This document shows positions 4,373-33,126 of a stretch of 34,375 nucleotides of DNA, in pieces. Position 1 is the first letter of the stretch. The number at the start of each line of letters is the position of its first letter. Both the position numbers and the translations under genes were made by a program. This DNA is from an uncultured Clostridia bacterium (lineage in GTDB: Bacteria > UBA6262 > WVXT01). The notes below the pieces were generated by a model, which was not told the DNA's origin, did no database searches, and saw only the letters and a list, made by a program, of their open reading frames with translations. The DNA lies in the NCBI GenBank assembly GCA_964550005.1, contig CAZJWT010000001.1:1-34375 (forward strand), given 5' to 3'.

Positions 4373-4384
4373 TTTTTTACCTTT

Positions 4385-4415
4385 GTAGTAAGGCAGAGCT
4401 TCGTTCTGCCGCTAC
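4385..4415. repeat. Palindromic element bounded by gtag...ctac
   Basis: gtagtaaggcagagcttcgttctgccgctac, with hairpin ggcaga/tctgcc. It lies immediately upstream of the nadA start. Confidence 0.7.
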
Positions 4416-4422
4416 AATATTG

Positions 4423-4563: not shown

Positions 4564-4592
4564 ATCATTATACCGCACAGTTCAGTCTCGGG

Positions 4593-5444: not shown

Positions 5445-5460
5445 TCTTCTCCTAAAAAGT

Positions 5461-5496
5461 AAAAAGGGGTCAGAGTCATTTTTGGAGTCATTTTTG
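5461..5496. repeat. Short shared motif plus perfect 12-nt tandem duplication
   Basis: aaaaaggggtcagagtcatttttgg matches the reverse complement of 33101-33126. gagtcatttttg occurs twice in tandem (5473-5484 and 5485-5496). Confidence 0.8.
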
Positions 5497-5498
5497 CC

Positions 5499-7144: not shown

Positions 7145-7932
7145 CTTTTACTTCCTTTCAACCCCAAGAAGTCCTCCATATCGTAAAATCCTGGCGGCTG
7201 CTTGACAATCCATTTTGAAGCCTCCACCGCTCCTCTGGCAAAGCAGTCTATGCTGTGCGCCCGATGGGTTAACTCCAGCCTCTCACCCTTTCCAGCAAAA
7301 ATGACAGTATGCTCTCCCACAATATCTCCAGCCCTTACAGCATGCATTCCTATCTCCTGGGGCTTTCGTGGCCCGACCATACCTTTGCGTCCGTAAACCC
7401 CTGCTTCTTTAAGATCTAAGTTTAGTGCTTGAGCGATGTTCTCTCCCAATTTCGCTGCTGTGCCCGAAGGTGCGTCCTTCTTCCGATTATGGTGGGTTTC
7501 AATAATCTCTACATCGTAACCTTTAAGCACCCTTGCTACACCCTCTACCAATCTAAATAGAAGATTTACTCCCAGACTCATGTTCGGAGCCATAAGAAGA
7601 GGAATGCTTTTTGCTTTCTCTATGACCAACTTCTTCTCTTCTTCTGTGTGGCCGGTAGTACCGATGACCATAGCCTTCTTGAACCTTGAGGCGATTTCTA
7701 AATTCTCCAAACTCGCCTGTGGATTTGTAAAGTCAATGACCACTTCTGCTCCATTAATGATCTTCTCCAGATTATCGGTCATCTTAACCTTCGGTGTGAC
7801 TTGAGTTCCTAAAGCCTTATGACCTTTTGCCTCAATAGCCCCTATCAGTTCTGTATTTTCATCCTGGCTGAGAATATCAATAATTCTTTTACCCATTTTC
7901 CCACAGGCACCGCAGACAATTACTTTAACCAT
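7141..7932 (-). CDS. dapB: 4-hydroxy-tetrahydrodipicolinate reductase
   Basis: The ORF track starts at 7965, but those 11 codons are read out of the heptamer repeat. ATG at 7932 (MVKVIVCGACGKMGK) is preceded by AGGGGGAATT. Motifs GACGKMGK and ETHHNRKKDAPSGTA are present. Confidence 0.9.
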   Translation of the reverse strand: MVKVIVCGACGKMGKRIIDILSQDENTELIGAIEAKGHKALGTQVTPKVKMTDNLEKIINGAEVVIDFTNPQASLENLEIASRFKKAMVIGTTGHTEEEKKLVIEKAKSIPLLMAPNMSLGVNLLFRLVEGVARVLKGYDVEIIETHHNRKKDAPSGTAAKLGENIAQALNLDLKEAGVYGRKGMVGPRKPQEIGMHAVRAGDIVGEHTVIFAGKGERLELTHRAHSIDCFARGAVEASKWIVKQPPGFYDMEDFLGLKGSKR

Positions 7933-7950
7933 AATTCCCCCTAAAATACG

Positions 7951-8002
7951 AATCTCAAATTTCAAATTATAAATTTCAAATTACGGGCATAAAGCCCTAC
8001 AC
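7951..8002 (-). repeat. Heptamer tract (AAATTTC-type, ~5 units) fused to REP gggcataaagccctacac
   Basis: aatctc aaatttc aaattat aaatttc aaattac + gggcataaagccctacac. It lies directly upstream of the dapB RBS. Confidence 0.85.
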
Positions 8003-8010
8003 TACCATAC

Positions 8011-8084
8011 TAATTTCAAATTTCAAATTTCAAATCTCAAATTTCAAATTACAAATTTCAGATTATGGGTATGAAGCCCTACAC
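8011..8084 (-). repeat. Heptamer tract (~8 units) fused to REP gggtatgaagccctacac
   Basis: taatttc aaatttc aaatttc aaatctc aaatttc aaattac aaatttc agattat + gggtatgaagccctacac. Confidence 0.85.
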
Positions 8085-8102
8085 GACAACACAATATCTC
8101 AC

Positions 8103-8975
8103 TTAGATAAGTTTATAATCCCTCAGTGTGGTCTTTAACTTTGCAAGATTTTCTTCAGACATCTTACATAGGGGTAACCTGATTTCGTCTGAAATCATTC
8201 CCATAAGGCTCATTGCTGTCTTAACAGGAATTGGATTTGTCTCATAAAACATTGCACCAAAGAGAGGAAACATCTTCAAGTGCATCTCCCTGGCTTTCTT
8301 AATGTCTCCTCTATTAAAGGCTTCCACAAGACCCGCCATCTTTTCGGGCACAATATTGGCAGTTACGGAAATTACTCCTTTGCCGCCAACAGCCATGATG
8401 GGAAAAGTCATAGCATCATCCCCGGAGAGAACATCGAAATCTTCTCCACACTCCCTCACAATCTGGCTTACCTGACTAATATCGCCGCTGGCTTCTTTCA
8501 ATCCCACAATGTTCCTAATCTTAGCCAATTTCGCCACGGTAGAAGGAAGCATGTTGACGCCAGTTCGTCCCGGCACATTATACATAACAATAGGAACATC
8601 CACAGCTTCGGAAACTTCTTTAAAATGTAAATAGAGACCATTCTGGGTTGGCTTATTGTAATATGGCGTTATCACCAAACACCCATCAGATCCCACTTTC
8701 TTAGCAAATCGGGTCAGTTCAATTGCTTCCGTCGTGTTATTGGAACCCGTGCCGGCAATAACTTTCACGCGGCCATTGACTGCCTTAACCACAGTCTCGA
8801 TGACTAACCTATGTTCCTCGTGAGAAAGAGTTGCAGATTCTCCCGTGGTTCCACAAGGAGCAATTCCCGATGTGCCCTTATTAACATGAAACTCAACCAG
8901 TTCTTCAAGCTTATCCACATCAACCCGATTATTCTTGAACGGTGTCACCAGTGCCACATAGGAACCCGAAAACAT
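8103..8975 (-). CDS. dapA: 4-hydroxy-tetrahydrodipicolinate synthase
   Basis: 290 aa with VTPF, CGTTGE, YNVPGRTG and GLKEASGD (active-site Lys). AGGGAGG RBS upstream. Confidence 0.92.
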   Translation of the reverse strand: MFSGSYVALVTPFKNNRVDVDKLEELVEFHVNKGTSGIAPCGTTGESATLSHEEHRLVIETVVKAVNGRVKVIAGTGSNNTTEAIELTRFAKKVGSDGCLVITPYYNKPTQNGLYLHFKEVSEAVDVPIVMYNVPGRTGVNMLPSTVAKLAKIRNIVGLKEASGDISQVSQIVRECGEDFDVLSGDDAMTFPIMAVGGKGVISVTANIVPEKMAGLVEAFNRGDIKKAREMHLKMFPLFGAMFYETNPIPVKTAMSLMGMISDEIRLPLCKMSEENLAKLKTTLRDYKLI

Positions 8976-8993
8976 CCCCGCACCTCCCTATTA

Positions 8994-9028
8994 AAATTTC
9001 AAATTTCAAATTTCAAATTTCAAATTTC
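8994..9028 (-). repeat. Perfect heptamer tandem repeat (AAATTTC)x5
   Basis: Five exact units that end 18 nt upstream of the dapA ATG. The minus strand reads (GAAATTT)5-taatAGGGAGGtgcggggATG. Confidence 0.9.
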
Positions 9029-9045
9029 TAACCTCTACTCTTATT

Positions 9046-14112: not shown

Positions 14113-14702
14113 CTCCCCTCCTTACGCTTCGCTTCAGTCGGCCGGGGTTCTCACCATCTCGAACCCGTCGCCAGACTTGTCCCGATTTATTCATCGGGAC
14201 GGCGACCCTTACGCTTCGCTTCAGTCGGTGACCTGCCTGCTCAAAAGAGTTTATAGTCACTAGTTCGTAGTTCATAGCAATCATCAATTAGGTCTACGAA
14301 CTATGAACTGCCGACTACGAACTGGAACACTCCTTATTCGTCGGAACAGCGACCCGGGGCGCTCACCGTCTCGCGCCCGCGCTTTTCCCTCGCTACGCTC
14401 AGTCGTCCCGATGAAATCGGGACCGGCGCCCCTCCTATCTGAATCTGCCTGTGCTCAATAGGGGAAACTCTTCGTTTCCCCTAATTGCGTTCGCTTCGCT
14501 CTCTGTCACCCTTTCCGCAGAGGTCATTCCTATTTATGTGAATCTGCTCCGAAGGAGTCCGACGCCTCCATTGGGTTTCGGAGTCCTGTCGGACCTGTGC
14601 TTCCCCTCACCTATAGCCTCTCCCCCAACGGGGAGAGGAAAAAACAACCTTTTGTCATCCCTTCCGCATTCCTTCCACTATACCGAACCTAAATATCTGA
14701 GC
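14113..14702. repeat. 590-bp non-coding mosaic of short repeat modules
   Basis: A 22-mer direct repeat ccttacgcttcgcttcagtcgg occurs at 14120-41 and 14207-28. Conserved-loop hairpins lie at 14142-67 and 14354-79. cccgat/atcggg mini-hairpins lie at 14179-14200 and 14405-23. Inverted heptamer arrays span 14261-77 and 14294-14324. A 9-bp-stem hairpin lies at 14460-82. cccctcacc...cctctcccc-caac-ggggagagg spans 14603-38. Confidence 0.85.
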
Positions 14703-14928
14703 AAAAGATAGTTTTGAAGAGCTTTAAGGAATTTTAGCCAAAAAACGAGGACAACTGTCATTGCGAAGAGCGGAGCGACGAAGCCCCGATTTATCGGGGC
14801 CACGGGCTTCGCCCTCGCAATGACATTCCGATGATCCCGATTTATCGGGAGAGTTTCGATTTGCGCCCTGCAAAGTCCGAAGTTTTTTGGCGTTAAGAAA
14901 TTCCTCCAGCGAGGAAAAACTATCTTTT
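14703..14928 (+). mobile_element. MITE-like composite element, 226 bp, 13-bp perfect terminal inverted repeats
   Basis: The TIRs are aaaagatagtttt (14703-15) and aaaactatctttt (14916-28). An inner inverted pair is gccaaaaaac (14737-46) and gttttttggc (14882-91). It also contains the 68-nt cattgcga element (14757-14824) and tcccgatttatcggga (14835-50). Confidence 0.75.
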
Positions 14929-14969
14929 GTGAATCAGCCTTACTGAAAAATGGTCGCTGTCCCTATTTT

Positions 14970-16284: not shown

Positions 16285-16493
16285 CCGAGGGACTCCCAAA
16301 ACTATCCTTACATCTTACGGGTTCGATGAATCGAACCCCTACATTAATTGTAGGGGCTCAATTTATTGAGCCCATTCCTTCAATTCCGCGTCATTGCGAG
16401 GAAGCGAAGCGACCGAAGCCCCGATTTATCGGGGCCACGGCTTCGCCTCGCAATGACAGCCATCCGAGAGACTCCGAAAACTATCCCTTCATC
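16285..16493. repeat. REP head-to-head doublet plus 68-nt cattgcga element, bracketed by a ~30-nt imperfect direct repeat
   Basis: The direct repeats are ccgagggactcccaaaactatccttacatc (16285-16314) and ccgagagactccgaaaactatcccttcatc (16464-93). The REPs are 16319-42 gggttcgatgaatcgaacccctac and 16350-73 gtaggggctcaatttattgagccc, with a 7-nt spacer attaatt. The hairpin element spans 16390-16457. Confidence 0.85.
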
Positions 16494-16501
16494 CCAACTA
16501 C

Positions 16502-16642
16502 GGACATAAAGCCCTACACTACCTTGTAGGGGACGGACTCTGTGCCGTCCCTTCCTTCGTCACCCTAAAGGGCGACCAACCTGTCTGGTCGGGCACTATT
16601 TATGGTGCCGTCCTTTGGGCGACCACGGAGTGTCGCCCCTAC
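16502..16642. repeat. Array of five palindromic units
   Basis: The units are ggacataaagccctac (16502-17), gtaggggacggactctgtgccgtccc (16526-51), cttcgtcaccctaaagggcgaccaacc (16555-81), ggtcgggcactatttatggtgccg (16588-16610) and gggcgaccacggagtgtcgcccctac (16617-42). The last overlaps the GT39 stop codon. Confidence 0.9.
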
Positions 16643-19497: not shown

Positions 19498-20285
19498 TTT
19501 ATGATTTTGGTTCCTCCCAATTTCATCCGCTTTTCAAGAAGAGGCAACAGAGCATCTTTTTTTCGACCATCAAGGATATTTATTTCCTTTACACCTTTCC
19601 TAAGCGCCTCAGCACAGGAATCTATCTTGGGAATCATTCCTTCAGTAATGGTTCCCTTCCTTGCCAGCTTCTCAACCTCTTCTATTCTTATCTCTTTAAT
19701 TACAGACTTCTCATCTTTAGGATTTTCCAGAATGCCTGGCACATCGGTTAGGAAGAATAACCTTTCTGCTCCGATAGCAGCTGAAAACTGGGCTGCAAAG
19801 ATATCGGCATTGATGTTATAAGTCACCCCTCTTCTATCCATAGCCGTAGAAGAGATAACCGGGATGAACCCGTTATCCAAAAGGACGTACATAATTTCAG
19901 GATTTACTCTCTCCACTTCAGCCACATATCCGAGGTCGTGTCTTCCTTCTATCTTCTTCGCTTCCACTAAAAAACCATCCTTCCCTGAAATGCCCACAGC
20001 CCTCCCTCCCAAAAGATTAATCCTTCCCACTATCCTTCGGTTAATCCCTGCCAGAACCATCTCCACAATTTCCAGGCTTTCAGCATCTGTGTACCTTTGC
20101 CCTTTTACAAATCTCGGCTTCTTTCCCAAAATATTCAGTTTTTCAGTAATTTCCAGCCCGCCTCCATGAATGACGACTGGATGTTTTAGTCGTTTTGCCA
20201 GCGAGATAATATTCTTGAGGTGACTATCCATCACCGGTCCTCTCAAAAGTTTCCCGCCAATCTTTATTACTAACAACTCTTTCAC
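19494..20285 (-). CDS. argB: Acetylglutamate kinase
   Basis: 263 aa with VIKIGGK, VIHGGG and NINAD motifs. The GTG start at 20285 overlaps the comEC TGA by 4 nt (GTGA). Confidence 0.9.
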   Translation of the reverse strand: MKELLVIKIGGKLLRGPVMDSHLKNIISLAKRLKHPVVIHGGGLEITEKLNILGKKPRFVKGQRYTDAESLEIVEMVLAGINRRIVGRINLLGGRAVGISGKDGFLVEAKKIEGRHDLGYVAEVERVNPEIMYVLLDNGFIPVISSTAMDRRGVTYNINADIFAAQFSAAIGAERLFFLTDVPGILENPKDEKSVIKEIRIEEVEKLARKGTITEGMIPKIDSCAEALRKGVKEINILDGRKKDALLPLLEKRMKLGGTKIIK

Positions 20286-22630
20286 TGCTTCCCCCCTCTC
20301 ATTGGTTCAATCTGGAATGACTTCCCATCAGTTCTTATGACGATAGCACCATTATTAGAAGTAGAGAAAAATCCTATTTTATTATACTTCTCTTCCAATT
20401 TTCTAACCCGGAATTTAGTTGATATTATACCATATTTCGGCGCCACTTTATATAGAAATTTTGGAGCTACCCGGCCTCCACCATGATTGGGTATCTGCAG
20501 AATATCACTTTTAATATCTTCTCTCTCTAACTCATCCTGTACATCATAATCGATATCTCCTGTGAATAGAATTGCAAAATTTCCATAGCTCACCTTGGTA
20601 ACCAGAGAATTACTATCAATATTTTCTCTCATAATCGTGGGATTTAAGATGTGAAATCTTACAGCATTATATTCAACCTTTTCACCATAAGCTATATATT
20701 TCAAGGGAATCCTTTTCTCTCTGATAATCTGAAGGAACTCCTCAAAAGCGTCGTCATCATAATTTTGACCATTATAGTATACCCTTTTCACCTTAAATTT
20801 TTTTAGAACTGAAATCAAACCTCCTATATGGTTATAGTGGGGGTGAGTCAAAAAGATAGTATCTATCCTGGAGACGCCATTTTTCAATAAATAAGGAATT
20901 ACCACTTTCTCCCCTATATCAAATTTTCCTATTACCCCGCCCCCGTCTATCAATATGTCCTTCCTGTCAGGCAGTCTGAGGTGAATCGCATCTCCCTGTC
21001 CCACATCCAGAAAAGTAATGGTTAGTTTGTCCGAAGGGACTATTTTCAAGCCGGCTACCGAAAATATAATGAGAAGTGGGAAAAAGAGAATGAGTCTACG
21101 TACTGAACGGGAAGATTCCATTTTCGGTAGAAAAGAGAAGAAAAGATAGTAAGATAAGATAAATATGCAGGAAGGATTCACGACATATTTTACTGAGAAG
21201 GGTAACGAAGCAAAAAATCGAATAGATTGGAATAGAACTATTACAAATAACCTGTTAACTGTGTTAACCGCCTGGGCGAGCCCTAAGGAGAAAAGGCCCG
21301 CTATCGATGAGGCAAATCCCAGGGCTGTGATTACACCAACCTGAGGAACAACCACAATGTTGGAGAGTAGAGCAATTAATGAAATCTTATTGAAGTAGAA
21401 GGCAGTTATGGGATAGACACCAACCAATGCTCCAGCAGAGACTGCCAGTGAACCTAAAATGTAAGTAACGAGCTTATGAGGTTTGCTCAAACGAAAATGA
21501 CTCTGGAAATAGGGAGTGAGATAGAGAATCCCTAAAGTCGCCATAAATGAAAGCTGAAAACCCACATCAAAGAGGGTAAAGGGATTCCAGATTAAAATAA
21601 TCAGGGCAGCTAGGGTCAAGCTATTATAAAGATGTTTATCCCTATCGAGGAGGAATGCCACTAACCCGCAGATAGCCATAATTGATGCCCTTGCCGCGGA
21701 AGGAGGATTGCCGACTACCTGAGCAAATATTATGACTACCAGTATCGTTAAAAGATAGGTTACCCTCTTGGGAATCCCGATTCCCCGAAAGAACCCATAA
21801 AATATGAACAGAACCAAGCCTACATTTAGCCCGCTTACTGCAAGTATATGAAGCACTCCGGCATCAGCAAACATCTCTTGAATATCCCTGGGCAGGTCGC
21901 ACCTCTCTCCCAATATCAGTCCTGCGAGAATCGAAGATTCCAATTGGGGGAGGGTGCTCTTAATAACAAAATCTATTTTTCGTCTAATTTTTGAGATGAG
22001 CGAAGGAAAGAAGCCCATTTCTGCCTGGCCGAACCTTTCAATATCTCCACTATCATAGACAGAAAAGAGCGAATGGATATTTCGATAGCTCAAATACCTC
22101 CTATAGTCGAATAGCCCGGGATTAGCTGAAGCAGGGGGAAGGGAGAGTCTGCCTGAGAGACTCACGCGGTCTCCATAATTTATCTCGGCTGGCACGGAAG
22201 TGTAGAGAAAGACTTGCGTTTTTCCTCTTACTTCTATTTCTCTCTTATCAGTGGTTAATCTCTGGCAGGCTAAGACAAAATCGACCCTTTGCGAGGACTT
22301 ATTAGGAATTGAAACTACAACGCCTCTGAGCCGACTTCTCTCCTGAGTTGGAAAAGAGATGTAGTGGCTTATCTCGTTAGGAGGGATATGGTGAGCTCCC
22401 AGATGCCGGGCAATTCCCAAAGAGAGGAACGCCAAAAAGAAAAAGATTAAACCGATGTTTCCTGGACTTCGCTGAAGAATGAAATAGAAAACTGAAGCCA
22501 GAATAAAAAGACTTAAGAAGATTATTAGAAACCAGAAATATTTAGCTTCTATGAAGAAATTGCCGAGAAGAATTCCCAAAATATATCCGATTACAGTTAA
22601 GAGGAGTGGCGTGAAACTAAATTTCCTCAT
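20282..22630 (-). CDS. comEC: DNA internalization-related competence protein ComEC/Rec2 (N-terminal DUF4131-like region, polytopic competence domain, C-terminal metallo-beta-lactamase domain)
   Basis: 782 aa. The N-terminal TM helices are followed by an OB-like segment and about 8 further TM helices. The C-terminal domain has ITFLDVGQGDAIHL, LTHPHYNHIGG, FTGDID and IPNHGGG. Confidence 0.88.
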   Translation of the reverse strand: MRKFSFTPLLLTVIGYILGILLGNFFIEAKYFWFLIIFLSLFILASVFYFILQRSPGNIGLIFFFLAFLSLGIARHLGAHHIPPNEISHYISFPTQERSRLRGVVVSIPNKSSQRVDFVLACQRLTTDKREIEVRGKTQVFLYTSVPAEINYGDRVSLSGRLSLPPASANPGLFDYRRYLSYRNIHSLFSVYDSGDIERFGQAEMGFFPSLISKIRRKIDFVIKSTLPQLESSILAGLILGERCDLPRDIQEMFADAGVLHILAVSGLNVGLVLFIFYGFFRGIGIPKRVTYLLTILVVIIFAQVVGNPPSAARASIMAICGLVAFLLDRDKHLYNSLTLAALIILIWNPFTLFDVGFQLSFMATLGILYLTPYFQSHFRLSKPHKLVTYILGSLAVSAGALVGVYPITAFYFNKISLIALLSNIVVVPQVGVITALGFASSIAGLFSLGLAQAVNTVNRLFVIVLFQSIRFFASLPFSVKYVVNPSCIFILSYYLFFSFLPKMESSRSVRRLILFFPLLIIFSVAGLKIVPSDKLTITFLDVGQGDAIHLRLPDRKDILIDGGGVIGKFDIGEKVVIPYLLKNGVSRIDTIFLTHPHYNHIGGLISVLKKFKVKRVYYNGQNYDDDAFEEFLQIIREKRIPLKYIAYGEKVEYNAVRFHILNPTIMRENIDSNSLVTKVSYGNFAILFTGDIDYDVQDELEREDIKSDILQIPNHGGGRVAPKFLYKVAPKYGIISTKFRVRKLEEKYNKIGFFSTSNNGAIVIRTDGKSFQIEPMRGGKQ

Positions 22631-23851: not shown

Positions 23852-23950
23852 CTCTTTTGAACTCCTCCCCACTCCTCTCCCCAAAGGGGAGAGGGACAGG
23901 GTGAGGGGTTTAATCCTCTCCCCCATGCGCAAAGGTTTCTCTTTTTGAAC
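23852..23950 (-). repeat. 'ggggagagg' palindromic element (inverted copy) flanked by an 11/12-nt direct repeat
   Basis: cctctccccaaaggggagagggacagggtgagggg (23875-23908) is the inverted form of 14603-38 and 27273-27306. The flanks are ctcttttgaac (23852-62) and ctctttttgaac (23939-50). Confidence 0.75.
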
Positions 23951-24028: not shown

Positions 24029-25222
24029 CTAATATTGAACTCTTACGGCTACAACTATTCTGGTCAGTGTCTCATCTATTCTCTGACGCTCCTCAAAGAA
24101 GGTGGCATCACCATAATAATTCCTTTTGCCGAACTCCCCGGCAAAATCGAAAGATACTATATTGTTAAATTTATATCCCAGCCCTCCCGTAAAGGAGACC
24201 ATCTGAAATTCTTTACTACCATAAAAGGGTTGAAAATGGAAACCATATCTTAAAGAAAGAGCATCTGACAGATAGTGCTCTGCACCAATACGAAATTCAA
24301 AGGTATCACCGTAATTAGATCCTGATTCAAATCCCGACCATTCACTAAAGATGAACTCAGCCGCTATGGTAGAAGAGATTTCGTCAACGAAATTATAAGC
24401 CACACCAAAGCCATACGATAGGGGAAATTTTAGCTCTTTCCTGCCTTCTTTTGTCGACGTAGAGTAGTTCACTTTCCATCTATCCTCGACTTTTCCTCTT
24501 GTCTTAACAATAAATCCAGCTCTAAACTCATCGGAGAAGCAGAGCATCCCTCCCAGCGTGAAATTAAGACCAGAACTCTTTGATTTGAGCTCGGTAACGG
24601 AGGCGGGAGGAGAAGCATAAATAGTGCATCTATTTTTGAGACTTCTTTCTCCATACAGAAGGTTAACAGTCCCACCCATACATAAATATGGCGTGAGCTT
24701 CCATGCTCCTCCTAAGCTATAGCCATAGAGGCTTCCTTCTCCACTTATGCTGGCAGAGCCAATTTTCTCACCCGGCGAATCTGCGTCAAAGATGGATTTC
24801 TCATGCTCGTAATGGTTGTCGTATAAGGAGACAAGTCCTAAAGCCAGCACCCATTTTCTTCTGACCGGAAAAGCAAGAGTAGCACTATTGAGTTGAAAAT
24901 AGCACTGAGAATTAAAATACGTCAATTCATCTTCTGTAATCACCTTTTCTACAACCGGCGCTATTCCCAAAGCTAATGAAAGTTCGTTCTTTTTCAAAAC
25001 CCCGAGACATGAGGGATTTACAAATATAGAAGAAGAATCGGTTGCACTGGCAATTGATGTTCCTCCCATTCCCATGCAGCGAGCCCCAATTCCAGAAATG
25101 GGATCTCCTAAGCGAGAAACTCCCAGATAAGTAAGCGCATCAACTTTTGAAGCCAGAAAACAGAGAATAGTAACTACTACAAAAACAATTCTTTCTTTGT
25201 TCACCTTTCCTTTGTAACCCAC
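24029..25222 (-). CDS. Outer-membrane beta-barrel protein, FadL/PorV-like family
   Basis: 397 aa with a signal peptide (...LASKVDA/LT). The N-terminal plug-type motif GIGARCMGMGGTSIASATDSSSIFVNPSCLG resembles the FadL/TodX/PorV G-x-GAR-x-GMGGA...NPAGL signature. It shows an alternating beta-strand pattern and a C-terminal aromatic (…VRVQY). The start codon is uncertain (GTG 25222 or GTG 25204). Confidence 0.65.
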   Translation of the reverse strand: MGYKGKVNKERIVFVVVTILCFLASKVDALTYLGVSRLGDPISGIGARCMGMGGTSIASATDSSSIFVNPSCLGVLKKNELSLALGIAPVVEKVITEDELTYFNSQCYFQLNSATLAFPVRRKWVLALGLVSLYDNHYEHEKSIFDADSPGEKIGSASISGEGSLYGYSLGGAWKLTPYLCMGGTVNLLYGERSLKNRCTIYASPPASVTELKSKSSGLNFTLGGMLCFSDEFRAGFIVKTRGKVEDRWKVNYSTSTKEGRKELKFPLSYGFGVAYNFVDEISSTIAAEFIFSEWSGFESGSNYGDTFEFRIGAEHYLSDALSLRYGFHFQPFYGSKEFQMVSFTGGLGYKFNNIVSFDFAGEFGKRNYYGDATFFEERQRIDETLTRIVVAVRVQY

Positions 25223-25246
25223 CCAGTTTCAAACTTTCTAACTATC

Positions 25247-27250
25247 TCACCACTTCACATCCCATTGTAAACTGAACACATGTCTTCTGCTTCCGATTAT
25301 TTTATCTAACTCTTCTTTATTTTCCGGCCTGCTTATCCCATAATCATTGTAATAGTGTGTATTTTCATATTTCATCCAGAGGCTGGTGTTTTTAGTAATC
25401 CCTTGCGTTACCATTAAGTAGTATCTTACACCTTTGCCATAGGTCCACCAATGGAAAGGAGTCAAACCCATAGGCCATAAAAATTCAATTTCGCTCAAAG
25501 CAACTCCTGGGTCAGCCTCGAAAAAGATCAGCCTCCCTTCAAGATTCAACCTAACAGTTGGACTGTACCTGAGGTCACCAAAAATTAAGTATCCTCTATC
25601 CACTTGCTTGAGCTCATAAATACTGTTCTTTCTCTCATCCCACCTTACCTTAAACCTCACCCTGCCATCCGGATTCCAAGTAACCTGCACTCTCGTCTTC
25701 TTCCAGCTCTGGCATAAATCTCTATTTTCTACCTTTTTATCATACCAGTGGTCCCATTTCCTAAAATATATTTCCAGCTTCCTTGATACTCTCTGTCTAA
25801 CATCAAACCAGAATTCCTTATCTGTGGTTGGCATTAAATTATCCTCTCTCCAAGGATGGCGAACAGGTCTAAAATAGATTTGCACTTCCCTCTCTCTATC
25901 CTCATACTTACCACCAAGGAATATTCCATTCTCATTCCAGCCTTCATCCCTCCGTCCAACTATAGTGGTAGCACTACTATGTTCGTTATAGTAATCTGGG
26001 TCATATTTATAAATAGTCATCCATAAAGTAAAGCTGCTTAATTTGAGCATAGGCTGCATCATCCACGCCTCACCATAACCTACGCACTTAGCATATTCGG
26101 CGAAGAGATTCAATTTTCTATACCAAGTATCAAAATCGAACCCGAAAATCCTGTTTCTATTTCCTCGAAATAGATAGTATCCTTTCTCTTCCGGCGGATT
26201 AATCCCAGGGCTATATTTGCTCTCATAACCGATAAAACCAATCTGTGAATCTCTTAAAAAATTATAAGCCACTCTACCGCCAATCAGTTTCTCAGTCAAC
26301 TTGTTATTTCTCTCCAGTTCTTTATCACTAGTAACATAACCCATATTCGCTCTAATAGCAATTAAGCTCTCCTTCACAGTACCATCCGGATTCAAGGATG
26401 CATCGAGCTTCTTATTCGAATAGAAGAAATCAAAGTCGAACTGTTCTATTTTCTTTCTTATCGCCAATCCTCTGAAATAAGTATTTGGTGTTGTCCCTCC
26501 ATCTGCTGCAATACCTTTAGCTTCAATCTTTACTGATCTGGTTAATTCTATTGCCAGAGGATAATAGAAGATTAATCCCTGATTATATTGAAGCTTGTAA
26601 TCGCCAATGACTATCTTATCAGTGGAATGAACATCTTGCATTACAAACCAGTATTTGGTCAAATAGTATTTCCAGAGATTATGAAAATTAATTGTAGGTT
26701 CCGAACCGCTGTCTGACTGAGCGCCCCCGTGACGAAGGACCCAACCGGCTTCATAGTGGCTTCCATATCTTAACCTCGTGCGATTATAGAGATATGCGGG
26801 ATTTTGAAATTTAGGGTCAGCATCAAAATAAGCTTCACTATCCGGCTTATCCAGCTTAATTCTCCACCGGAAATCACCGTGGAGGGCTACGGGAATTCCT
26901 TTTAGCTCAACCCTAACATAAGGAGCTATTCCCTCAAATATCTCATCATTCACTCCTGGCACATCCTTAACTTCCTCAACATCTGTAAATCCTCTCTGTT
27001 CACGATAGATAATAATCGCCCTTGCCAGGCGAGAATCAATTAGAGGAAGCTTCAACAATTGGTCAAAAGAGACAGTATTTAAGTCGAGTGGATAGTCTTT
27101 CAAATCAGCAAGCTCTTCCTTATCCACTGCCCCAGGGAATACTGTCTCGGCTTCATCCTCTTCAAATTCGACCTGACCCACCACTGCCGCAGGCAGATTA
27201 GCCAGCAAGAGTATGTACAAAGCGAGACGAATAGCGGTAATTCTTGTCAT
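25247..27250 (-). CDS. Exported helix-hairpin-helix (ComEA-like) DNA-binding domain fused to a large predicted outer-membrane beta-barrel
   Basis: 667 aa with a signal peptide (…LPAAVVG/QVEF). A ComEA-type HhH module (LDLNTVSFDQLLKLPLIDSRLARAIIIYREQRGFTDVEEVKDVPGVNDEIFEGIAPYV) is followed by about 540 aa rich in amphipathic beta-strands and aromatic girdle residues. It ends ...FSLQWDVKW, an OMP beta-signal-like terminus. Confidence 0.6.
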   Translation of the reverse strand: MTRITAIRLALYILLLANLPAAVVGQVEFEEDEAETVFPGAVDKEELADLKDYPLDLNTVSFDQLLKLPLIDSRLARAIIIYREQRGFTDVEEVKDVPGVNDEIFEGIAPYVRVELKGIPVALHGDFRWRIKLDKPDSEAYFDADPKFQNPAYLYNRTRLRYGSHYEAGWVLRHGGAQSDSGSEPTINFHNLWKYYLTKYWFVMQDVHSTDKIVIGDYKLQYNQGLIFYYPLAIELTRSVKIEAKGIAADGGTTPNTYFRGLAIRKKIEQFDFDFFYSNKKLDASLNPDGTVKESLIAIRANMGYVTSDKELERNNKLTEKLIGGRVAYNFLRDSQIGFIGYESKYSPGINPPEEKGYYLFRGNRNRIFGFDFDTWYRKLNLFAEYAKCVGYGEAWMMQPMLKLSSFTLWMTIYKYDPDYYNEHSSATTIVGRRDEGWNENGIFLGGKYEDREREVQIYFRPVRHPWREDNLMPTTDKEFWFDVRQRVSRKLEIYFRKWDHWYDKKVENRDLCQSWKKTRVQVTWNPDGRVRFKVRWDERKNSIYELKQVDRGYLIFGDLRYSPTVRLNLEGRLIFFEADPGVALSEIEFLWPMGLTPFHWWTYGKGVRYYLMVTQGITKNTSLWMKYENTHYYNDYGISRPENKEELDKIIGSRRHVFSLQWDVKW

Positions 27251-27272
27251 CGGTACTGATCAGGCACTCTCT

Positions 27273-27502
27273 CCCCTCACCCTTTCCCTCTCCCCGGGGG
27301 GAGAGGAGAGAAATAAGAAGTCAAGCTTCCACTATCTTCGTCACCCTGCCCCGTCCCGAAACCGGAACGGGGTCGGGAAAGGGTGACCAACCACGCGTAG
27401 GGGCGACCCTTGCGGTCGCCCATTGGTCGGGCACTCTTTAGAGTGCCGTTTCTGGTCGGGGGCACCATTTACCTGTCCTGAACATAGCCGAAGGATGGTG
27501 CC
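27273..27502. repeat. Array of palindromic units between the PorV-like gene and the HhH-barrel gene
   Basis: The units are cccctcaccctttccctctccccggggggagagg (27273-27306), cttcgtcaccct[30-nt insert]aaagggtgaccaacc (27336-92), gtaggggcgacccttgcggtcgccc (27397-27421), ggtcgggcactctttagagtgccg (27425-48) and ggcaccat...atggtgcc (27461-27502). Confidence 0.88.
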
Positions 27503-27537
27503 GGTGTAAAAAAGTAGCTTGTCCCCTTTTCGCGCGA

Positions 27538-28416
27538 TTAATCTTGCTTAGTCACGCCGCCGGAGTGCAAAGAAAGAGAAAATTGGTGCTGCCCACTTAG
27601 GAAAGGATGGCTCAAGAATGCGTAATCGAATTCGAATATGTTCCAGCGAAAGCCAAAACCTGCGCTAACTCTCGCTGGGTCGTTCTCTACCCCGACCCGC
27701 AAGATAAAATTTCTACTAAGGGTAGCCTCAAAACCAGCTCTTATCTCAGGTTCAACCTTTGCTGAACTCATTGGTAGATACAAATCGAGAGAGGTAATGT
27801 AACCAGAAAGAGGCTGAAAAAAAGCCCCCACCTTAATTGTCTGGGCTAAATTTTCCGGGGAGTTACCGAGTCGGGGACCGTTCAGGTTCATTGCCATAAT
27901 CCCCAACCTGAACTTAGAACTAATATCGGCAAGAGTTCCCATATCCAGACCGAAAGCGGAAGCCTTACCATAAGTAGAATTTACGCTGGCTCCCTTAATC
28001 TTTAGACTCATAATTTTGACATTGAAACCGAAATATATCCCACTCCCCAAACTCTGCCCGCAAGAAAAAATAGTCTGACTCTCTCTATATTCTGAACACC
28101 CAAACTGTGAATATGAGAATCCAAAGGCTCCCACCTTTTTAGTAGGGATCACTCCACCAAAAAGATAATATCTCAAATCTTTTAGGCCGAAAAGCTGAGT
28201 AGTCACTCCCATGGCTTCTACTTCTTTGACCAGTTCCAATCCAGCCGGGTTCCAGTAGATAGCATTAACATCATCAGCCACACCCGTAAACGCTCCTGCC
28301 ATCCCCATTGGACGAGCCCCCGCTCCCTTCTCCTCAAAAGCCCCGTAACTGGGCGAAAGGGTGAAAAAATAGAAAAGTGAAAAGGCAAAAAGTAATAGAA
28401 AGGCTTTTCTTACCAT
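27538..28416 (-). CDS. Outer-membrane beta-barrel protein, PorV/FadL-like (UPF0164-like) family
   Basis: 292 aa with a signal peptide (…SPSYG/AFEE) and the motif GAGARPMGMAGAFTGVADDVNAIYWNPAGL. The start lies 4 nt after the stop of the CTD-bearing protein upstream. Confidence 0.65.
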   Translation of the reverse strand: MVRKAFLLLFAFSLFYFFTLSPSYGAFEEKGAGARPMGMAGAFTGVADDVNAIYWNPAGLELVKEVEAMGVTTQLFGLKDLRYYLFGGVIPTKKVGAFGFSYSQFGCSEYRESQTIFSCGQSLGSGIYFGFNVKIMSLKIKGASVNSTYGKASAFGLDMGTLADISSKFRLGIMAMNLNGPRLGNSPENLAQTIKVGAFFQPLSGYITSLDLYLPMSSAKVEPEIRAGFEATLSRNFILRVGVENDPARVSAGFGFRWNIFEFDYAFLSHPFLSGQHQFSLSLHSGGVTKQD

Positions 28417-28420
28417 ATCT

Positions 28421-29320
28421 CTATCTAAGTTTTCTTCCTACTATGATTGTTTCCGTTCCTTTGGTTACCTTTCCTGTATTTTCGTTCAGTGCCTCAATGT
28501 GACAAATATATATTCCAATTGGCACGATTGTGCCTCCAGACTCATCCGTGCCATCCCAGGTTACAGAGCCTTCCCCATCAATGTCTACCTCCTGGTCAAT
28601 CAACACTCTAACTAACTTTCCCCTGACATCAAAAATTCTTAAGGTAATTCTTGAACCATCCGGGACATTATATTTTATCTTTCCCTCAGTTGGTCTACCG
28701 CTTATATCGCTGTACGGAAAAAATGGTGAATCACTTACTTCCATTGTCTTTGTGGTAGGCTCCTCCTCGTAAACAGGTCTTGGGATTGGGAGTATACGGA
28801 CGAAAGATACATCATCAACATAAAAGGTTCTCTCTCCACAAGCTCCGGTGCCAGAAACCCAAACTCTTACATTGGCGGAGTTAGCATTTGGAGGCGCGAG
28901 AATTTCGCCTGTTGTCAGTTCCTGGTAGGAAGAACTATCGAGGGAAGGTAAAGACTCTCCTTTGTCAATAGAACTTCCGCTTCCATCATTAGAAGTATAC
29001 CAGTAGACTCTAATTGTGACTTCGCCATCTGGCTCGTTGTCATAAACCCATAGGGAGGCACCATAAGTCTCCCCGGGTGAAATTGTGATTCCCTTCTGCT
29101 GAATATATCCATAACCCGTCCCAGCATCGAAGAGTTTAGCTGCAAATGAGTCACTTCGCACAGGTGAATCTACCACACACCATTCCTTCAAACCCCACTC
29201 ATTCCAGTAGTTGGTAGTCCCGGACTCCAATCCTCCGTCAATAATTAACCCATCACCCCATGCAACGCCGACAGATAAAAAAAGAATCCCAATCGATTTT
29301 AAAATCACAAGTTTTCTCAT
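28421..29320 (-). CDS. Secreted protein: CBM4/9-like jelly-roll domain plus C-terminal FlgD-Ig/T9SS type-A sorting-like domain
   Basis: 299 aa with a signal peptide (…VGVAWG/DG). The N-terminal domain starts IIDGGLESG...NYW and ends FYVDDVSFV, a CBM_4_9-like pattern. The C-terminal ~85 aa (KIKYNVPDGSRITLRIFDVRGKLVRVL...VTWDGTDESGGTIVPIGIYICHIEA...) matches the FlgD-Ig / Por-secretion-tail pattern. Confidence 0.6.
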   Translation of the reverse strand: MRKLVILKSIGILFLSVGVAWGDGLIIDGGLESGTTNYWNEWGLKEWCVVDSPVRSDSFAAKLFDAGTGYGYIQQKGITISPGETYGASLWVYDNEPDGEVTIRVYWYTSNDGSGSSIDKGESLPSLDSSSYQELTTGEILAPPNANSANVRVWVSGTGACGERTFYVDDVSFVRILPIPRPVYEEEPTTKTMEVSDSPFFPYSDISGRPTEGKIKYNVPDGSRITLRIFDVRGKLVRVLIDQEVDIDGEGSVTWDGTDESGGTIVPIGIYICHIEALNENTGKVTKGTETIIVGRKLR

Positions 29321-29368
29321 AGGATTCTAATAAATAACCTCTCTAATTCTATGCAATTTATATTTTAA

Positions 29369-30028
29369 CTACCACTCCTCACTTTCTTCTTGTGACATTG
29401 CTTCGTATTTGGTCAATAATAACTTCTCAATACTCTTTTTGATTCTCTCATCATAAATATAAATCTGCTTTACCCAGCTACCTCTCCCTTTTTCAGGTGG
29501 CCTCGATGGCCAGGCAATCCAGGGCCCCCTCTTACCTTCCATTATTCCACAGGAGACAGCCACCGCATTATTAAAGGTAATTTCCACATTAACTTTCCTT
29601 TTTCCAGCTCCCCTCAGCCTGAACCAATCCGTAACTTTGAAAGACACCTGTTCAAGCTTTTCTTGAGACGGCTTTCCTGTCTCAATTGCTTTCACTATGG
29701 CATCTCCTACTTCTTCTTTGAGGAACTTTATTTGAGGATAGACAATACCTCTCTTGCTAATGTATTCGGGAAACTTTAATACTGTCCTATTGTCACCCTT
29801 CATCACCTTAATTTCTCTCACCACTATACATTCATTGAGCATCACTTTAGCAACTCCAACCACTCCTTGTTCAGCCTCAACTGGCTCCACTTCAACTCTT
29901 GTAACACTGATAGTCTCCAGGGACTCCTTCTTCTTTTCTGCTCCCGCCACTGCTGAAGAGAGTATAACAATCAGCAAGGCTGCAACAAACAAACCCGCCC
30001 ATCTTCTTATAAGTTTTTTACAAACCAT
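29369..30028 (-). CDS. Exported protein with two tandem SpoVG-like domains
   Basis: 219 aa with an N-terminal signal peptide or anchor (WAGLFVAALLIVILSSAVAGA/EKK). Two segments each follow the SpoVG pattern (MxVTDVRLRxV..G..kA.AsITLD..FVVHDIRVI.G..GlFVAMPS....G.....hPI....R..I..avL..Y). They are ISVTRVEVEPVEAEQGVVGVAKVMLNECIVVREIKVMKGDNRTVLKFPEY... and FKVTDWFRLRGAGKRKVNVEITFNNAVAVSCGIMEGKRGPWIAWPSRPPEKGRGSWVKQIYIYDERIKKSIEKLLLTKYE. The assignment is by eye and needs HMM or structure confirmation. Confidence 0.5.
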   Translation of the reverse strand: MVCKKLIRRWAGLFVAALLIVILSSAVAGAEKKKESLETISVTRVEVEPVEAEQGVVGVAKVMLNECIVVREIKVMKGDNRTVLKFPEYISKRGIVYPQIKFLKEEVGDAIVKAIETGKPSQEKLEQVSFKVTDWFRLRGAGKRKVNVEITFNNAVAVSCGIMEGKRGPWIAWPSRPPEKGRGSWVKQIYIYDERIKKSIEKLLLTKYEAMSQEESEEW

Positions 30029-30111
30029 CCTTTCACTCCTTTCCAGAATCTATATCTTGGCTTTCATAAGTTGGGAATCACGAGACGTTAATCTGTTCAA
30101 CCTTATCCTTG

Positions 30112-30687
30112 TCACCAACTTTGACTATTCTTGGTTGATGGGGGACATTCGGATTTAATTCTAATGAACTCTTTGAGAAAAAATTTGGCAAGGGGGATGG
30201 AATCTATGAGGACGGAAGCTTCGTTATTCTTTTCCAATGCATGGTAGCCCCAGTTGGTGCTGCCAATTACCGTGTATCTTTCGTCTACTATGATGAGCTT
30301 ATTGTGAGTGGTTGTTGTGAGGGAGTCGAAATATACCTTGATACCAGCTTTTGAAAGCATAAATCCTCCCTCTTCTCTGTTTCTTATGGTAACTTTTTCC
30401 ACAGTGCCTTGTTCCAAAATTACTTCTACATTTACTCCTCTTTTATGAGCATCTATCAAATCTTGAACCAACTGGTTTTCCAGGCTTGAAGGATACTTTG
30501 GATAGTAGAACATTTCAAACATTACTATATAGATAGATTTTTTGGCTTGCTTTAAGAGGTTATGGACTGCTGGGTGGTATAACTTATTGGGAATCGGCTT
30601 CACATCTTTTGCCGGGAGGGCGAAAACAATCTGTAAAGATAATGAAAAGATCAAAACAGCAATTAGTATGTATCTCCTGACTTTCAT
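30112..30687 (-). CDS. Secreted phospholipase D-family protein, Nuc-like single-HKD endonuclease
   Basis: 191 aa with a signal peptide (…LQIVFA/LPAKD) and one HKD motif, HNKLIIVDERYTVIGSTNWG. Size and architecture resemble the periplasmic Nuc nuclease of IncN plasmids. A lipid substrate cannot be excluded from sequence. Confidence 0.65.
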   Translation of the reverse strand: MKVRRYILIAVLIFSLSLQIVFALPAKDVKPIPNKLYHPAVHNLLKQAKKSIYIVMFEMFYYPKYPSSLENQLVQDLIDAHKRGVNVEVILEQGTVEKVTIRNREEGGFMLSKAGIKVYFDSLTTTTHNKLIIVDERYTVIGSTNWGYHALEKNNEASVLIDSIPLAKFFLKEFIRIKSECPPSTKNSQSW

Positions 30688-31470: not shown

Positions 31471-31720
31471 AAAGATAGTTTGTGAAGAGCATTGGGAATT
31501 TTAGCCAAAAAATGAGGACGGCTAACCCTCTTCCAAGCAAAAATTTGTTCGACTCCCGCTCTGCGGGAAGAGTTTATTTTTGCGCCTTGCAGAGTCGTTG
31601 CGAGGAAGCGAAGCAACCGAAGCCCCGATTTATCGGGGCCACGGCTTCGCCTCGCAATGACATCTTAGTGAGCGAACCAAATCCCAAGCATATTTCCTTA
31701 GTGATGAACAAACTATCTTT
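31471..31720 (+). mobile_element. MITE-like composite element, 250 bp, 13-bp perfect terminal inverted repeats
   Basis: The TIRs are aaagatagtttgt (31471-83) and acaaactatcttt (31708-20). It contains ggaattttagccaaaaaatgagg, gagtttatttttgcgccttgcagagtc and the 67-nt cattgcga-type element (31595-31661). The modules match 14703-14928 but occur in a different internal order. Confidence 0.75.
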
Positions 31721-31760: not shown

Positions 31761-33014
31761 CTAAAAATAGCCGGGCTCTACAAATCCCGCTTCAGTTCCT
31801 TCAGGGGTCAATCTCAGGGAGCCGAACTGGATTGTTCTAATCTTCTCCTTCTCTCTTACTGGAGTAAATATTCTTATTCTTCTTCCTTTATAATCTATTC
31901 TATCAATAATTCCTATCCCCAGAACTTCACCCAGCGAATCCAGAAGTCCTATAAGTAGGTTCTTTTCATTACCAGCAATGATATTTCTTAGATTGGAAGC
32001 TCCTGCTTCCCTCTTTACTATAATGGATTCTTCCTCAGACAATGGCTCCTCTGTTACCACGAAAACTCCTTCCCAACCTGAAAGTCTCTCCGCCCAAAGA
32101 TACTGGATACCTTCCAATTTGATTTCTTTACCCGTTTTGAAATAGGCACGGTCTGTTTGAACTTCATCCAGGTCCAGTTCTATATAACCGGCTTCTTTGA
32201 AATACTTTTTATACATCGTTTCGCGTAGCCCCTTCCTCTCCTCGTGGTTTCTCGGCAAGGGACCCTTGCTAACAAGTAAGTGGACGATTTTCTCCCGGGG
32301 ATAATTTTTGACCAGATGTTCCAGCTCGTCGCCTCTCTGGAGCAAAATGATTGCATCCGGGCTCAACATCTCTATTTCTGAGCGGTGGAGAGCACGGGCT
32401 TTCTCTCCCTGCACCCAGCCAGGTGTATCAATGATAAGTATATCGGCAAGAGTTAGTCCGCAGTCAACTAATTTTTTGAGCCCAACGAGTGAAGGAAGAA
32501 AATGGAAGGCAGGAGAGTTCGAGCCGGTAAAATAGAGGGCGGTTGGCTCTACTTCACTCGGAAAGACTATCTGCCTGTCTAAAACTGCCAGCCCTATTGT
32601 TCCCGGCGGACCGATGTCGCTCTGACCTGTATCACAATCGAGAATTCCTACTCTTAATCCGTGAGTCAGAAGTCTATTGGCTAAATAAGTCGAAAAGAAA
32701 GTCTTTCCAGTGTCTATCTCTCCCAAAATTAGAATTACCCTCGCTCCCTGTTTACTTAACTGCCCAGCTAACCTATCCCAGGGATCGGGAATCGTGCGCT
32801 CGGATAGGTGTTCTCTTTCTCCACCCTCCTCAAAATCTAAGGTCAATTCACCATCTACTATCGTCTCTACTGGTATAGACTTTCCCCTCGGAATCGTAAC
32901 TTGGTCAGGATTTTCCAGAGTTTTTGCTACTGCCTCGAACTTACCTTTATTAATTTTAAGGAGGCAGGGGCCCTTAAATAAGTAGATGTTTCCTTTATTC
33001 AATTTCAAATTCAT
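31761..33014 (-). CDS. Clp1/Grc3-family polynucleotide 5'-hydroxyl kinase homologue
   Basis: Start trimmed to ATG 33014 (MNLKLNKG...), because the 28 upstream codons of the track ORF are repeat-derived. P-loop GEIDTGKTF is followed by ILDCDTGQSDIGPPGTIG (the Clp1 DxDxGQ motif) and IIDTPGW. The N- and C-terminal beta domains resemble archaeal Clp1. Confidence 0.65.
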   Translation of the reverse strand: MNLKLNKGNIYLFKGPCLLKINKGKFEAVAKTLENPDQVTIPRGKSIPVETIVDGELTLDFEEGGEREHLSERTIPDPWDRLAGQLSKQGARVILILGEIDTGKTFFSTYLANRLLTHGLRVGILDCDTGQSDIGPPGTIGLAVLDRQIVFPSEVEPTALYFTGSNSPAFHFLPSLVGLKKLVDCGLTLADILIIDTPGWVQGEKARALHRSEIEMLSPDAIILLQRGDELEHLVKNYPREKIVHLLVSKGPLPRNHEERKGLRETMYKKYFKEAGYIELDLDEVQTDRAYFKTGKEIKLEGIQYLWAERLSGWEGVFVVTEEPLSEEESIIVKREAGASNLRNIIAGNEKNLLIGLLDSLGEVLGIGIIDRIDYKGRRIRIFTPVREKEKIRTIQFGSLRLTPEGTEAGFVEPGYF

Positions 33015-33045
33015 GATGGTTGCGGCAATTCTAAAGCAGAGAGTT

Positions 33046-33126
33046 GAGCAACCCTGAAGGTCACCCCTACGCCACCTGAGATTTTGGGCGGCGGTCAAAG
33101 CAAAAAATCACTCTGACCCCTTTTTT
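33046..33126. repeat. Decayed REP head plus two short shared modules
   Basis: gagcaaccctgaaggtcacccctac carries the ctac head with a weak stem. gagattttgggcggcggtcaaagcaaaaaatc resembles 9180-9213. caaaaaatcactctgacccctttttt resembles the reverse complement of 5461-85. Confidence 0.65.

Follow-up and report, generated by a model that had tools for sequence, protein, structure and literature searches.

A predicted outer-membrane barrel with a ComEA-type helix-hairpin-helix module, an exported tandem SpoVG protein and their conserved gene cassette as a possible nucleic-acid-handling complex

A block of six consecutive open reading frames (ORFs) in an uncultured Clostridia bacterium (GCA_964550005.1, contig CAZJWT010000001.1, forward strand 1-34,375; this whole stretch of 34,375 nt is called the window below) contains a conserved unit of five genes. 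They code for an exported protein with two SpoVG domains in tandem, a surface-protein candidate with a C-terminal sorting domain, a small outer-membrane barrel, a large barrel preceded by a ComEA-type helix-hairpin-helix (HhH) module (hereafter the HhH-barrel), and a FadL-like barrel (Table 1). Going by their sequences, the five proteins may assemble several barrels into an outer-membrane complex that, with nucleic-acid-binding modules on its periplasmic side, binds or passes nucleic acid, probably DNA; we hold this reading tentatively, as quite possible yet short of an even chance. An earlier account of the window, here called the original prediction, had proposed all six genes as a system for capturing or taking up extracellular DNA. 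The domains and the five-gene synteny speak for that proposal, whereas its ties to comEC and to a nuclease gene are clade-specific, the HhH module is degenerate and the barrel topology does not agree with an HhH tip at the cell surface.

By ORF mapping the six genes lie on the minus strand where they had been predicted, with gaps of 83, 48, 4, 287 and 24 nt (5' to 3' along that strand), again as predicted. All six proteins begin with a signal peptide (basic N-terminus, hydrophobic core and small-residue cleavage site) as called by our own n/h/c-region heuristic, likewise in line with the earlier claim. The same heuristic found a lipobox in none of the six and no signal-peptide features in the flanking FAH, HAD, Clp1 and ArgB proteins. 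Comparison with Pfam, NCBIfam, AlphaFold2 (AF2) models, Foldseek and PDB profiles upheld every domain assignment of the original prediction. Four independent modules of a nucleic-acid type, namely HhH, SpoVG, LTD (in relatives) and the Nuc-type phospholipase D (PLD) domain (in the window), are all extracytoplasmic and genetically linked.

Table 1. Positions of the six-gene block, its proteins and domains, and comEC in the window
Feature	Position (nt)	Strand	Basis
Six-gene block; five genes form the conserved cassette (24029-30028)	24029-30687	-	Six consecutive ORFs
Exported single-HKD PLD-family protein, Nuc/Zucchini nuclease type, 191 aa	30112-30687	-	PLDc_2 E=1e-24
Exported tandem SpoVG protein, 219 aa; domains at ~aa 41-117 and 129-214	29369-30028	-	Pfam SpoVG
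Surface-protein candidate, 299 aa; signal peptide, CBM_4_9-like sandwich, sorting domain	28421-29320	-	Pfam
CBM_4_9-like beta-sandwich, ~aa 25-175	28796-29248	-	CBM_4_9 E=2e-7
FlgD_ig/CHU_C-type C-terminal sorting domain, aa 213-296	28433-28684	-	FlgD_ig E=7e-6
Small outer-membrane barrel, 292 aa; conserved partner of the HhH-barrel	27538-28416	-	Sub-threshold PorV/PorQ-family relative
287-nt spacer; stacked GC-rich palindromes (REP-like dispersed elements)	27251-27537	.	RNA fold z=-4.1
HhH-barrel, 667 aa; signal peptide aa 1-25, acidic linker, HhH, ~26-strand barrel, end ...WDVKW	25247-27250	-	
ComEA-type HhH module, aa 55-113	26912-27088	-	HHH_3
~26-strand barrel, aa 123-667	25250-26884	-	AF2 and DSSP
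FadL-fold outer-membrane barrel, 397 aa; C-terminus ...VRVQY	24029-25222	-	Toluene_X
comEC (context only, outside the conserved cassette)	20282-22630	-	Competence E=1e-57, DUF4131, Lactamase_B

The HhH module of the HhH-barrel matches HHH_3 with 48.7 bits against a gathering cutoff of 27 (E=8e-13) and aligns over its full length with the DNA-binding domain of ComEA 8dss (1e-6). Against the NCBIfam ComEA HhH-repeat model TIGR00426 it stays below the cutoff (26.2 bits, cutoff 53.1). The residues of the HhH fold are nearly invariant in an alignment of 84 family members, with N58 for example present in 81 of the 84. For the other ~550 aa, neither Pfam nor NCBIfam has a matching model. An AF2 model made with 20 homologues (pLDDT 78.5, pTM 0.77) has, by DSSP, 26 long strands with short turns alternating with long loops, and Foldseek matched it to large outer-membrane barrels only: 22-strand TonB-dependent receptors, 24-strand ushers, 26-strand MtrB and AlgE. 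Given that these matches reach E ~1e-8 but TM scores of only 0.3-0.4, they confirm an outer-membrane barrel as the class, while none of the solved families fits. Attempts to find a specific solved homologue, by PDB sequence profile and by Foldseek, gave the generic barrel class only. With its turn and loop pattern and aromatic C-terminus, the modelled region after the HhH thus has the features of a large outer-membrane beta-barrel, as the original prediction had it. Because the strand count is even, short turns alternate with long loops and the HhH directly precedes strand 1, the module is predicted to be periplasmic; the modelled topology therefore speaks against the HhH as the tip of a surface receptor, which had also been proposed.

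The HhH-barrel belongs to a very widespread family. A search with the barrel only gave 1,722 cluster representatives at E<=1e-3, 762 of them at E<=1e-10, and the matches are mostly 600-720 aa long with the barrel starting at residue 120-230. According to genome records, the family occurs in lineages labelled 'Clostridia bacterium' or 'bacterium' (the clade of the window), in Elusimicrobiota and Ignavibacteria, and in many Bacteroidota. A profile search (query A2) of a database of 5.8 billion proteins, in which the word index limits the reach, returned the same 21 proteins as a single-sequence search. The fusion of HhH and barrel is undescribed as far as the literature and the curated libraries were searched.

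The tandem SpoVG assignment is borne out in sequence and in fold. Pfam SpoVG matches two stretches of the protein (57.9 bits, cutoff 29.6, E=1e-15), and the ten best PDB matches that Foldseek found for its AF2 model (pLDDT 81.8) are all SpoVG (TM 0.65-0.80; 2ia9, 2i9x, 2i9z). Known SpoVG, a DNA- and RNA-binding regulator of Bacillota, Borrelia and others, is a single-domain cytoplasmic protein of ~95 aa, whereas here two domains stand in one chain behind a signal peptide that is kept in all homologues, from six lineages. The score against the NCBIfam single-domain equivalog PRK13259 (49.8 bits) does not reach the cutoff of 108. The mature protein is basic (pI 9.07), with a net charge of +8 on domain 2, and a reciprocal search with it as query led back to this cassette. 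The literature searched contained no report of an exported SpoVG, and as far as that literature and the curated libraries go, an exported tandem SpoVG is undescribed. In Endomicrobiia, a homologue with a signal peptide (L041 5655-6284) lies amid prs, L25, pth, thrS, infC and L35. This is the classic spoVG neighbourhood, which hints that the exported family arose from a housekeeping spoVG locus.

The large barrel is flanked by two barrels that had been called FadL/PorV-like, and rightly so. The 397-aa barrel passes the Pfam Toluene_X cutoff (42.6 bits, cutoff 29.7, E=4e-11); its best NCBIfam match is BamG (78.6 bits, cutoff 250), followed by PorV_fam (47.5 bits, cutoff 90), both below cutoff. 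The small barrel has 80.7 bits against NCBIfam PorV_fam, just under the cutoff of 90, and 14.1 bits against Toluene_X, under the cutoff of 29.7. The PorV_fam scores of its Bacteroidota counterparts are also below cutoff (24-75 bits). The neighbour of P0020 had suggested that the small barrel of Bacteroidota might be Pfam Omp28, which four other Bacteroidota partners did not bear out. The remaining member of the cassette, described earlier as a protein with a carbohydrate-binding module (CBM) and a C-terminal domain, indeed matches CBM_4_9 and FlgD_ig. In relatives, the gene upstream of the small barrel always codes for a sorting-domain protein that has an LTD or CBM sandwich at its N-terminus; what these proteins share with their counterpart in the window is the sorting domain.

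How far these genes stay together was assessed by a scripted comparison of 39 loci, along with annotated neighbourhoods. Wherever a locus has sequence upstream of the HhH-barrel, the small barrel is nearly always the next gene on that side; at least 14 Bacteroidota loci are among these, so that this pair reaches into Bacteroidota. Non-Bacteroidota relatives retain the tandem SpoVG protein, the sorting-domain sandwich protein and the FadL-like barrel at 29-50% identity, the relatives with this wider cassette being L003-L008, L017, L018, L040, L042 and L043. The close clade and L003, L004, L006, L007, L008 and L043 have the FadL-like barrel directly 3' of the HhH-barrel. All five genes remain side by side even where identity falls to 29-37%, including in metagenome-assembled genomes of Ignavibacteria and Elusimicrobiota. 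The original prediction had staked itself on co-occurrence in related genomes: the five-gene cassette does remain together, but the PLD gene and the adjacency to comEC are found only in the window's own clade. Because these two are confined to loci of at least 76% identity, the conserved unit is one of five genes (tandem SpoVG, sorting-domain protein, small barrel, HhH-barrel and FadL-like barrel) and the link to comEC is local.

In some relatives the small barrel also carries HhH modules. One or two ComEA-type modules are found at its C-terminus in L003, L006, L008, L040 and L043, with a canonical PG[IV]G hairpin and Pro/Ala/Ser-rich spacer linkers of ~150 aa. Those of L003 score 98.8 bits and pass the curated ComEA-repeat cutoff of 53.1. 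Small barrels with two ComEA-grade modules are encoded at L003 8128-9963, L043 8139-9929 and L040 12497-14179, where the low-complexity linkers, rich in Pro, Ala, Ser and Glu and ~150 aa long, are apparently long enough to span the periplasm. The large barrels of these HhH-tailed relatives have two N-terminal HhH modules with G-h-T hairpins. In comparison, the window has a reduced version with one HhH, an untailed small barrel and no LTD protein, to which PLD has been added. In L006 the HhH-bearing small barrel and the large barrel are separated by an inserted TonB-dependent receptor gene of opposite orientation (6193-8319), and this large barrel has lost its own HhH (595 aa, no HHH_3).

From the genes, domains, folds, export signals and synteny given above, we infer a complex, its topology, DNA as its ligand and the directions that transport may take. 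The core would be the 26-strand barrel with its periplasmic N-terminal ComEA-type HhH module, partnered by two FadL-superfamily barrels, the small PorV/PorQ-like one and the ~400-aa BamG/PorV-like one. The surface beta-sandwich protein, probably held by its C-terminal sorting domain, would make the first contact with nucleic acid, and the large barrel may serve as the conduit for it across the outer membrane. HhH modules tethered to the outer membrane, together with the basic periplasmic tandem SpoVG protein, could then retain the polymer in the periplasm in a ComEA-like manner. In the lineage of the window, a periplasmic Nuc-type nuclease would cut it. The nucleic acid might go on to ComEC for transformation or be degraded as a nutrient, or the movement might be outward.

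Several likenesses to known systems are consistent with such a complex. The basic mature forms of the tandem SpoVG and PLD proteins (pI ~9) count for a DNA role. ComEA (8dss, 2duy, PGN_0421) shares with the window module the end-to-end HHH_3 alignment and the predicted periplasmic location, and the HhH repeats on the small barrels of relatives pass the curated cutoff for ComEA repeats; ComEA itself is small and soluble or anchored in the inner membrane, whereas the window HhH sits on an outer-membrane barrel of ~550 aa. SprA-PorV is a precedent for a FadL-fold accessory barrel on a larger barrel. Another is the Bacteroidota beta-barrel assembly machinery, BamA-BamG-BamH, where BamG, itself of the FadL fold, sits against a larger barrel and holds a surface protein whose fold is of a carbohydrate-binding kind (PMC12611786); BamG is also the best NCBIfam match of the 397-aa barrel. 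That match is far under its cutoff (78.6 vs 250 bits), the large barrel of the cassette is not BamA (no POTRA, ~26 strands), and neither BamD nor BamH is present in the window.

A functional analogy is also offered by Riemerella anatipestifer, an FCB-group bacterium in which RA0C_RS04915/RS04920, a pilus-independent module, pairs an outer-membrane barrel with an adjacent surface beta-sandwich protein, the pair being genetically required for DNA uptake (PMC8459023). The families are different ones, CarboxypepD_reg for the barrel and choice-of-anchor J/DUF5689 for its neighbour, and no sequence relationship to the cassette was detected, so that the likeness is one of function only. If DNA is the ligand, the cassette would also parallel the PilQ secretin with its type IV competence pilus as an outer-membrane conduit for double-stranded DNA coupled to periplasmic ComEA. 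PilQ is a multimeric secretin, whereas a monomeric 26-strand barrel is proposed here, and no pilQ/secretin, pilin, pilus ATPase or comEA domains were found among the window ORFs of at least 120 aa (shorter ORFs, including pilin-sized ones, were not scanned). Within that size range the earlier statement that pilQ, pilin and comEA are missing is correct.

A number of observations weigh against a nucleic-acid role. The hairpins of the window HhH are PLID and PGVN, compared with PGIG and TGIG in ComEA, and are non-canonical. Its net charge is -4, and the linker before it has a net charge of -9; the value of -4 does not settle the matter, since the 8dss module of ComEA has -2 itself. Throughout the family (84 members), the barrel-proximal HhH has P-[WFL]-[LI]-[STDN] and G-h-[DSTN] in place of G-h-G, and in a PDB profile search the HhH profile also matched PsbU and GspK, HhH proteins that do not bind DNA. 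The small barrel of the window lacks an HhH tail. In Bacteroidota, the barrel pair is without competence or nuclease neighbours; no conserved functional neighbours were found there, the adjacent genes being obg, PAP2, ABC transporters and the like. The public names of the HhH-barrel family derive from the HhH domain alone, and nothing on this architecture was found in the literature searched. To these are added the loss of comEC from the neighbourhood of distant relatives and the sorting-type proteins around the cassette, both discussed below, and the identity of the competence HhH protein of Porphyromonas gingivalis.

Transformation of P. gingivalis requires PGN_0421, annotated as ComEA (PMC11532111). 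PGN_0421 was recovered by way of the published deletion primers (given in the supplement of that paper), by finding contigs with exact matches and reading the gene between the primers. The protein (234 aa; L048 877-1581) is anchored in the membrane at its N-terminus and has two HhH, one with the canonical PGIG hairpin and one degenerate. The possibility that PGN_0421 is an HhH-barrel is thus ruled out, as it is an anchored ComEA without a barrel. In R. anatipestifer, transformation needs an 'HhH domain protein', RA0C_RS02645 (HhH at aa 236-301), as well as the RS04915/RS04920 pair (PMC8459023). By analogy with PGN_0421, RA0C_RS02645 is probably also an anchored ComEA with several HhH. As the window HhH is non-canonical and acidic and PGN_0421 is not of this family, the case for a DNA role is one of domain content only.

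The main alternative to the nucleic-acid reading, which we regard as somewhat unlikely, is a platform for sorting and anchoring surface proteins in the style of the type IX secretion system (T9SS), without a nucleic-acid role. The sorting-domain protein would be the cargo, the small PorQ/PorP-like and the PorV-like barrels would anchor it, the large barrel would be a scaffold or translocon, and HhH and SpoVG would be structural or bind protein. The barrels do resemble PorV, PorQ and PorP/SprF as FadL-superfamily barrels with the PorV/PorQ N-terminal motif: the small one is closest to the PorV/PorQ family, and weak PorP_SprF matches were found in L008 and L043. A gene for FlgD_ig/CHU_C cargo stands immediately upstream of the small barrel, with a gap of 4 nt, and pairs of type-B sorting-domain cargo and PorP-SprF have the same cargo-then-barrel order. 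The cassettes of relatives stand among genes for giant fn3/LTD/CBM proteins and for CHU_C-tailed S8 proteases, behind each of which comes a PorP/SprF-like barrel; these neighbours, like the PorV/PorQ/PorP-like barrels and the sorting domains themselves, fit sorting equally well. The loss of canonical hairpins from the barrel-proximal HhH throughout the family also fits. The T9SS-style alternative gives no reason, however, for a conserved exported tandem SpoVG protein, for HhH tethers at the ComEA threshold, for LTD or for a Nuc-type nuclease, and to our knowledge neither HhH fusions nor exported SpoVG are features of any described T9SS component. All of the PorV, PorQ and BamG scores are below the curated cutoffs, and no core T9SS gene (SprA, PorK/L/M/N, PorU/Z) is present in this 34-kb contig. 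Further, in Bacteroidota, where the T9SS is complete, the barrel pair lacks adjacent sorting-domain cargo; Por_Secre_tail was found on only 3 of 61 ORFs neighbouring the pair.

The model of the original prediction, a dedicated entry pore for natural transformation that hands DNA to the neighbouring ComEC, appears improbable. The start of comEC is indeed 1,398 nt downstream of the block with FAH as the sole gene between, in agreement with the distance of ~1.4 kb stated earlier, and comEC is likewise 1.4 kb away in L001, L013, L014 and L016. Sub-threshold matches of NucT models to the PLD protein would suit a transformation role as well, NucT being a Nuc-family protein implicated in Helicobacter pylori transformation. 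For P. gingivalis, the authors of the work on PGN_0421 say explicitly that they cannot account for the route of DNA through the outer membrane (PMC11532111). Against this, comEC is lost from the vicinity of the cassette in all relatives of less than 76% identity, and in L011 and L012 an extra 4-6.5 kb lies between the cassette and FAH-comEC. In the window, comEC is part of a housekeeping backbone for arginine, lysine and cofactor biosynthesis and overlaps the downstream argB (acetylglutamate kinase) by 4 nt (20282-20285), suggesting that it is translationally coupled with this arginine biosynthesis gene. The shared orientation of the block and comEC, once counted as evidence, is uninformative because every gene of the window is on the minus strand. 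Transformation genetics likewise point elsewhere: a transposon screen of R. anatipestifer (3,000 mutants, not saturating) led to the different pair RS04915/RS04920 (PMC8459023), and in P. gingivalis the HhH protein needed for competence is another protein, an anchored ComEA. With an adjacency that is clade-specific and comEC in a housekeeping arginine/lysine backbone, the proposed functional link from the block to ComEC is weakened.

That the genes are mere neighbours, unrelated exported proteins without a joint function, is highly improbable: a 287-nt spacer splits the block and its operon structure is not demonstrated, since scans for promoter and terminator consensus gave counts equal to those of shuffles, but the spacer consists of repeats inserted specifically in this genome, either barrel can carry fused HhH modules depending on the lineage, the five-gene order persists across lineages at 29-37% protein identity, a level that argues against one recently transferred island, and chance adjacency is excluded by the conserved synteny.

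The PLD gene, present only in the loci of at least 76% identity, is a lineage-specific addition outside the conserved cassette. The protein has the small size, the PLDc_2 match (87.2 bits) and the HxK(x)4D and GSxN residues of the Nuc/Zucchini type, with a single intact HKD motif (HNKLIIVD...GSTNW) from aa 128, and its nearest solved relatives are Zucchini/MitoPLD 4ggj (1e-10) and Nuc 1byr (1e-6). The earlier description as a Nuc-type single-HKD PLD thus stands, with nuclease activity predicted from sequence. Like Nuc, NucT and Zucchini, it has one HKD motif in ~170-190 aa, and like Nuc it has a signal peptide; the mature pI is 9.05. All NucT equivalog cutoffs of NCBIfam are missed (52 bits vs 211). 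In L001 (77% identity), the junction of HAD and PLD carries an insertion with DUF3800 and AbiEii genes (4279-6785), so that the PLD end of the block is a variable hotspot. This insertion includes a second, partial copy of PLD (5258-5503).

A bolder form of the nucleic-acid reading, which we consider unlikely, is that the barrel pair is a pilus-independent outer-membrane DNA translocon across the FCB group and neighbouring uncultured phyla, with ComEA-like HhH modules tethered to the outer membrane as a periplasmic ratchet and the tandem SpoVG protein as a nucleic-acid chaperone in the periplasm. Bacteroidota would use the pair, to which the non-Bacteroidota would add tandem SpoVG, the sorting-domain receptor and the FadL-like barrel, and the tandem protein would be the first known extracytoplasmic SpoVG.

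Bacteroidota and related phyla are mostly without competence pili and secretins, yet carry comEC, comF and dprA, and some are transformable. The cassette is a concrete candidate for the crossing of the outer membrane by DNA, as it joins a widespread, unnamed barrel family fused to a ComEA-type module with a partner barrel. Whatever the function, an exported tandem SpoVG family is new, and so is the finding of FadL-fold accessory barrels whose genes adjoin that of a large barrel for a third time, after SprA-PorV and BamA-BamG. If the anchoring alternative were true, the cassette would be a new module for anchoring surface proteins.

The 287-nt spacer between the genes for the small barrel and the HhH-barrel is specific to the genome of the window, the same junction having only ~20-36 nt in L001, L009 and L012. 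It had been described as filled by repeats, and stacked hairpins are present; these are not specific to the block, because dispersed element families fill intergenic gaps across the window, with elements of the spacer shared with 23886-23908 and 16586-16611. REP-like GC-rich palindromes occur in intergenic gaps at 4498-4533, 14769-14804, 16390-16458 and 31594-31662, and further pairs are 9044-9075/16615-16646, 16524-16552/19384-19412 and 23886-23908/27273-27295. Within these families, two copies of 69 nt share 97% identity and two of 29 nt share 100%, and many elements end in ...CCCCTAC. Tandem arrays of AAATTTC-type heptamers in a 14-nt register flank dapA (8103-8975) on both sides (7933-8069 and 8977-9045).

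Elsewhere in the window, 858 nt of raised GC (0.50) separate argG and an argD-like gene (14113-14969). This gap consists partly of REP-like elements and has no ORF of more than 100 aa and no Rfam or tRNA match, as scans with Rfam and for tRNA gave no match anywhere in the window. A Clp1-type P-loop protein of the eukaryotic and archaeal polynucleotide-kinase family (CLP1_P E=2e-37) is encoded at 31761-33098, and its gene adjoins those for a HAD hydrolase and an MTAP-like phosphorylase, an arrangement that is kept in close relatives.

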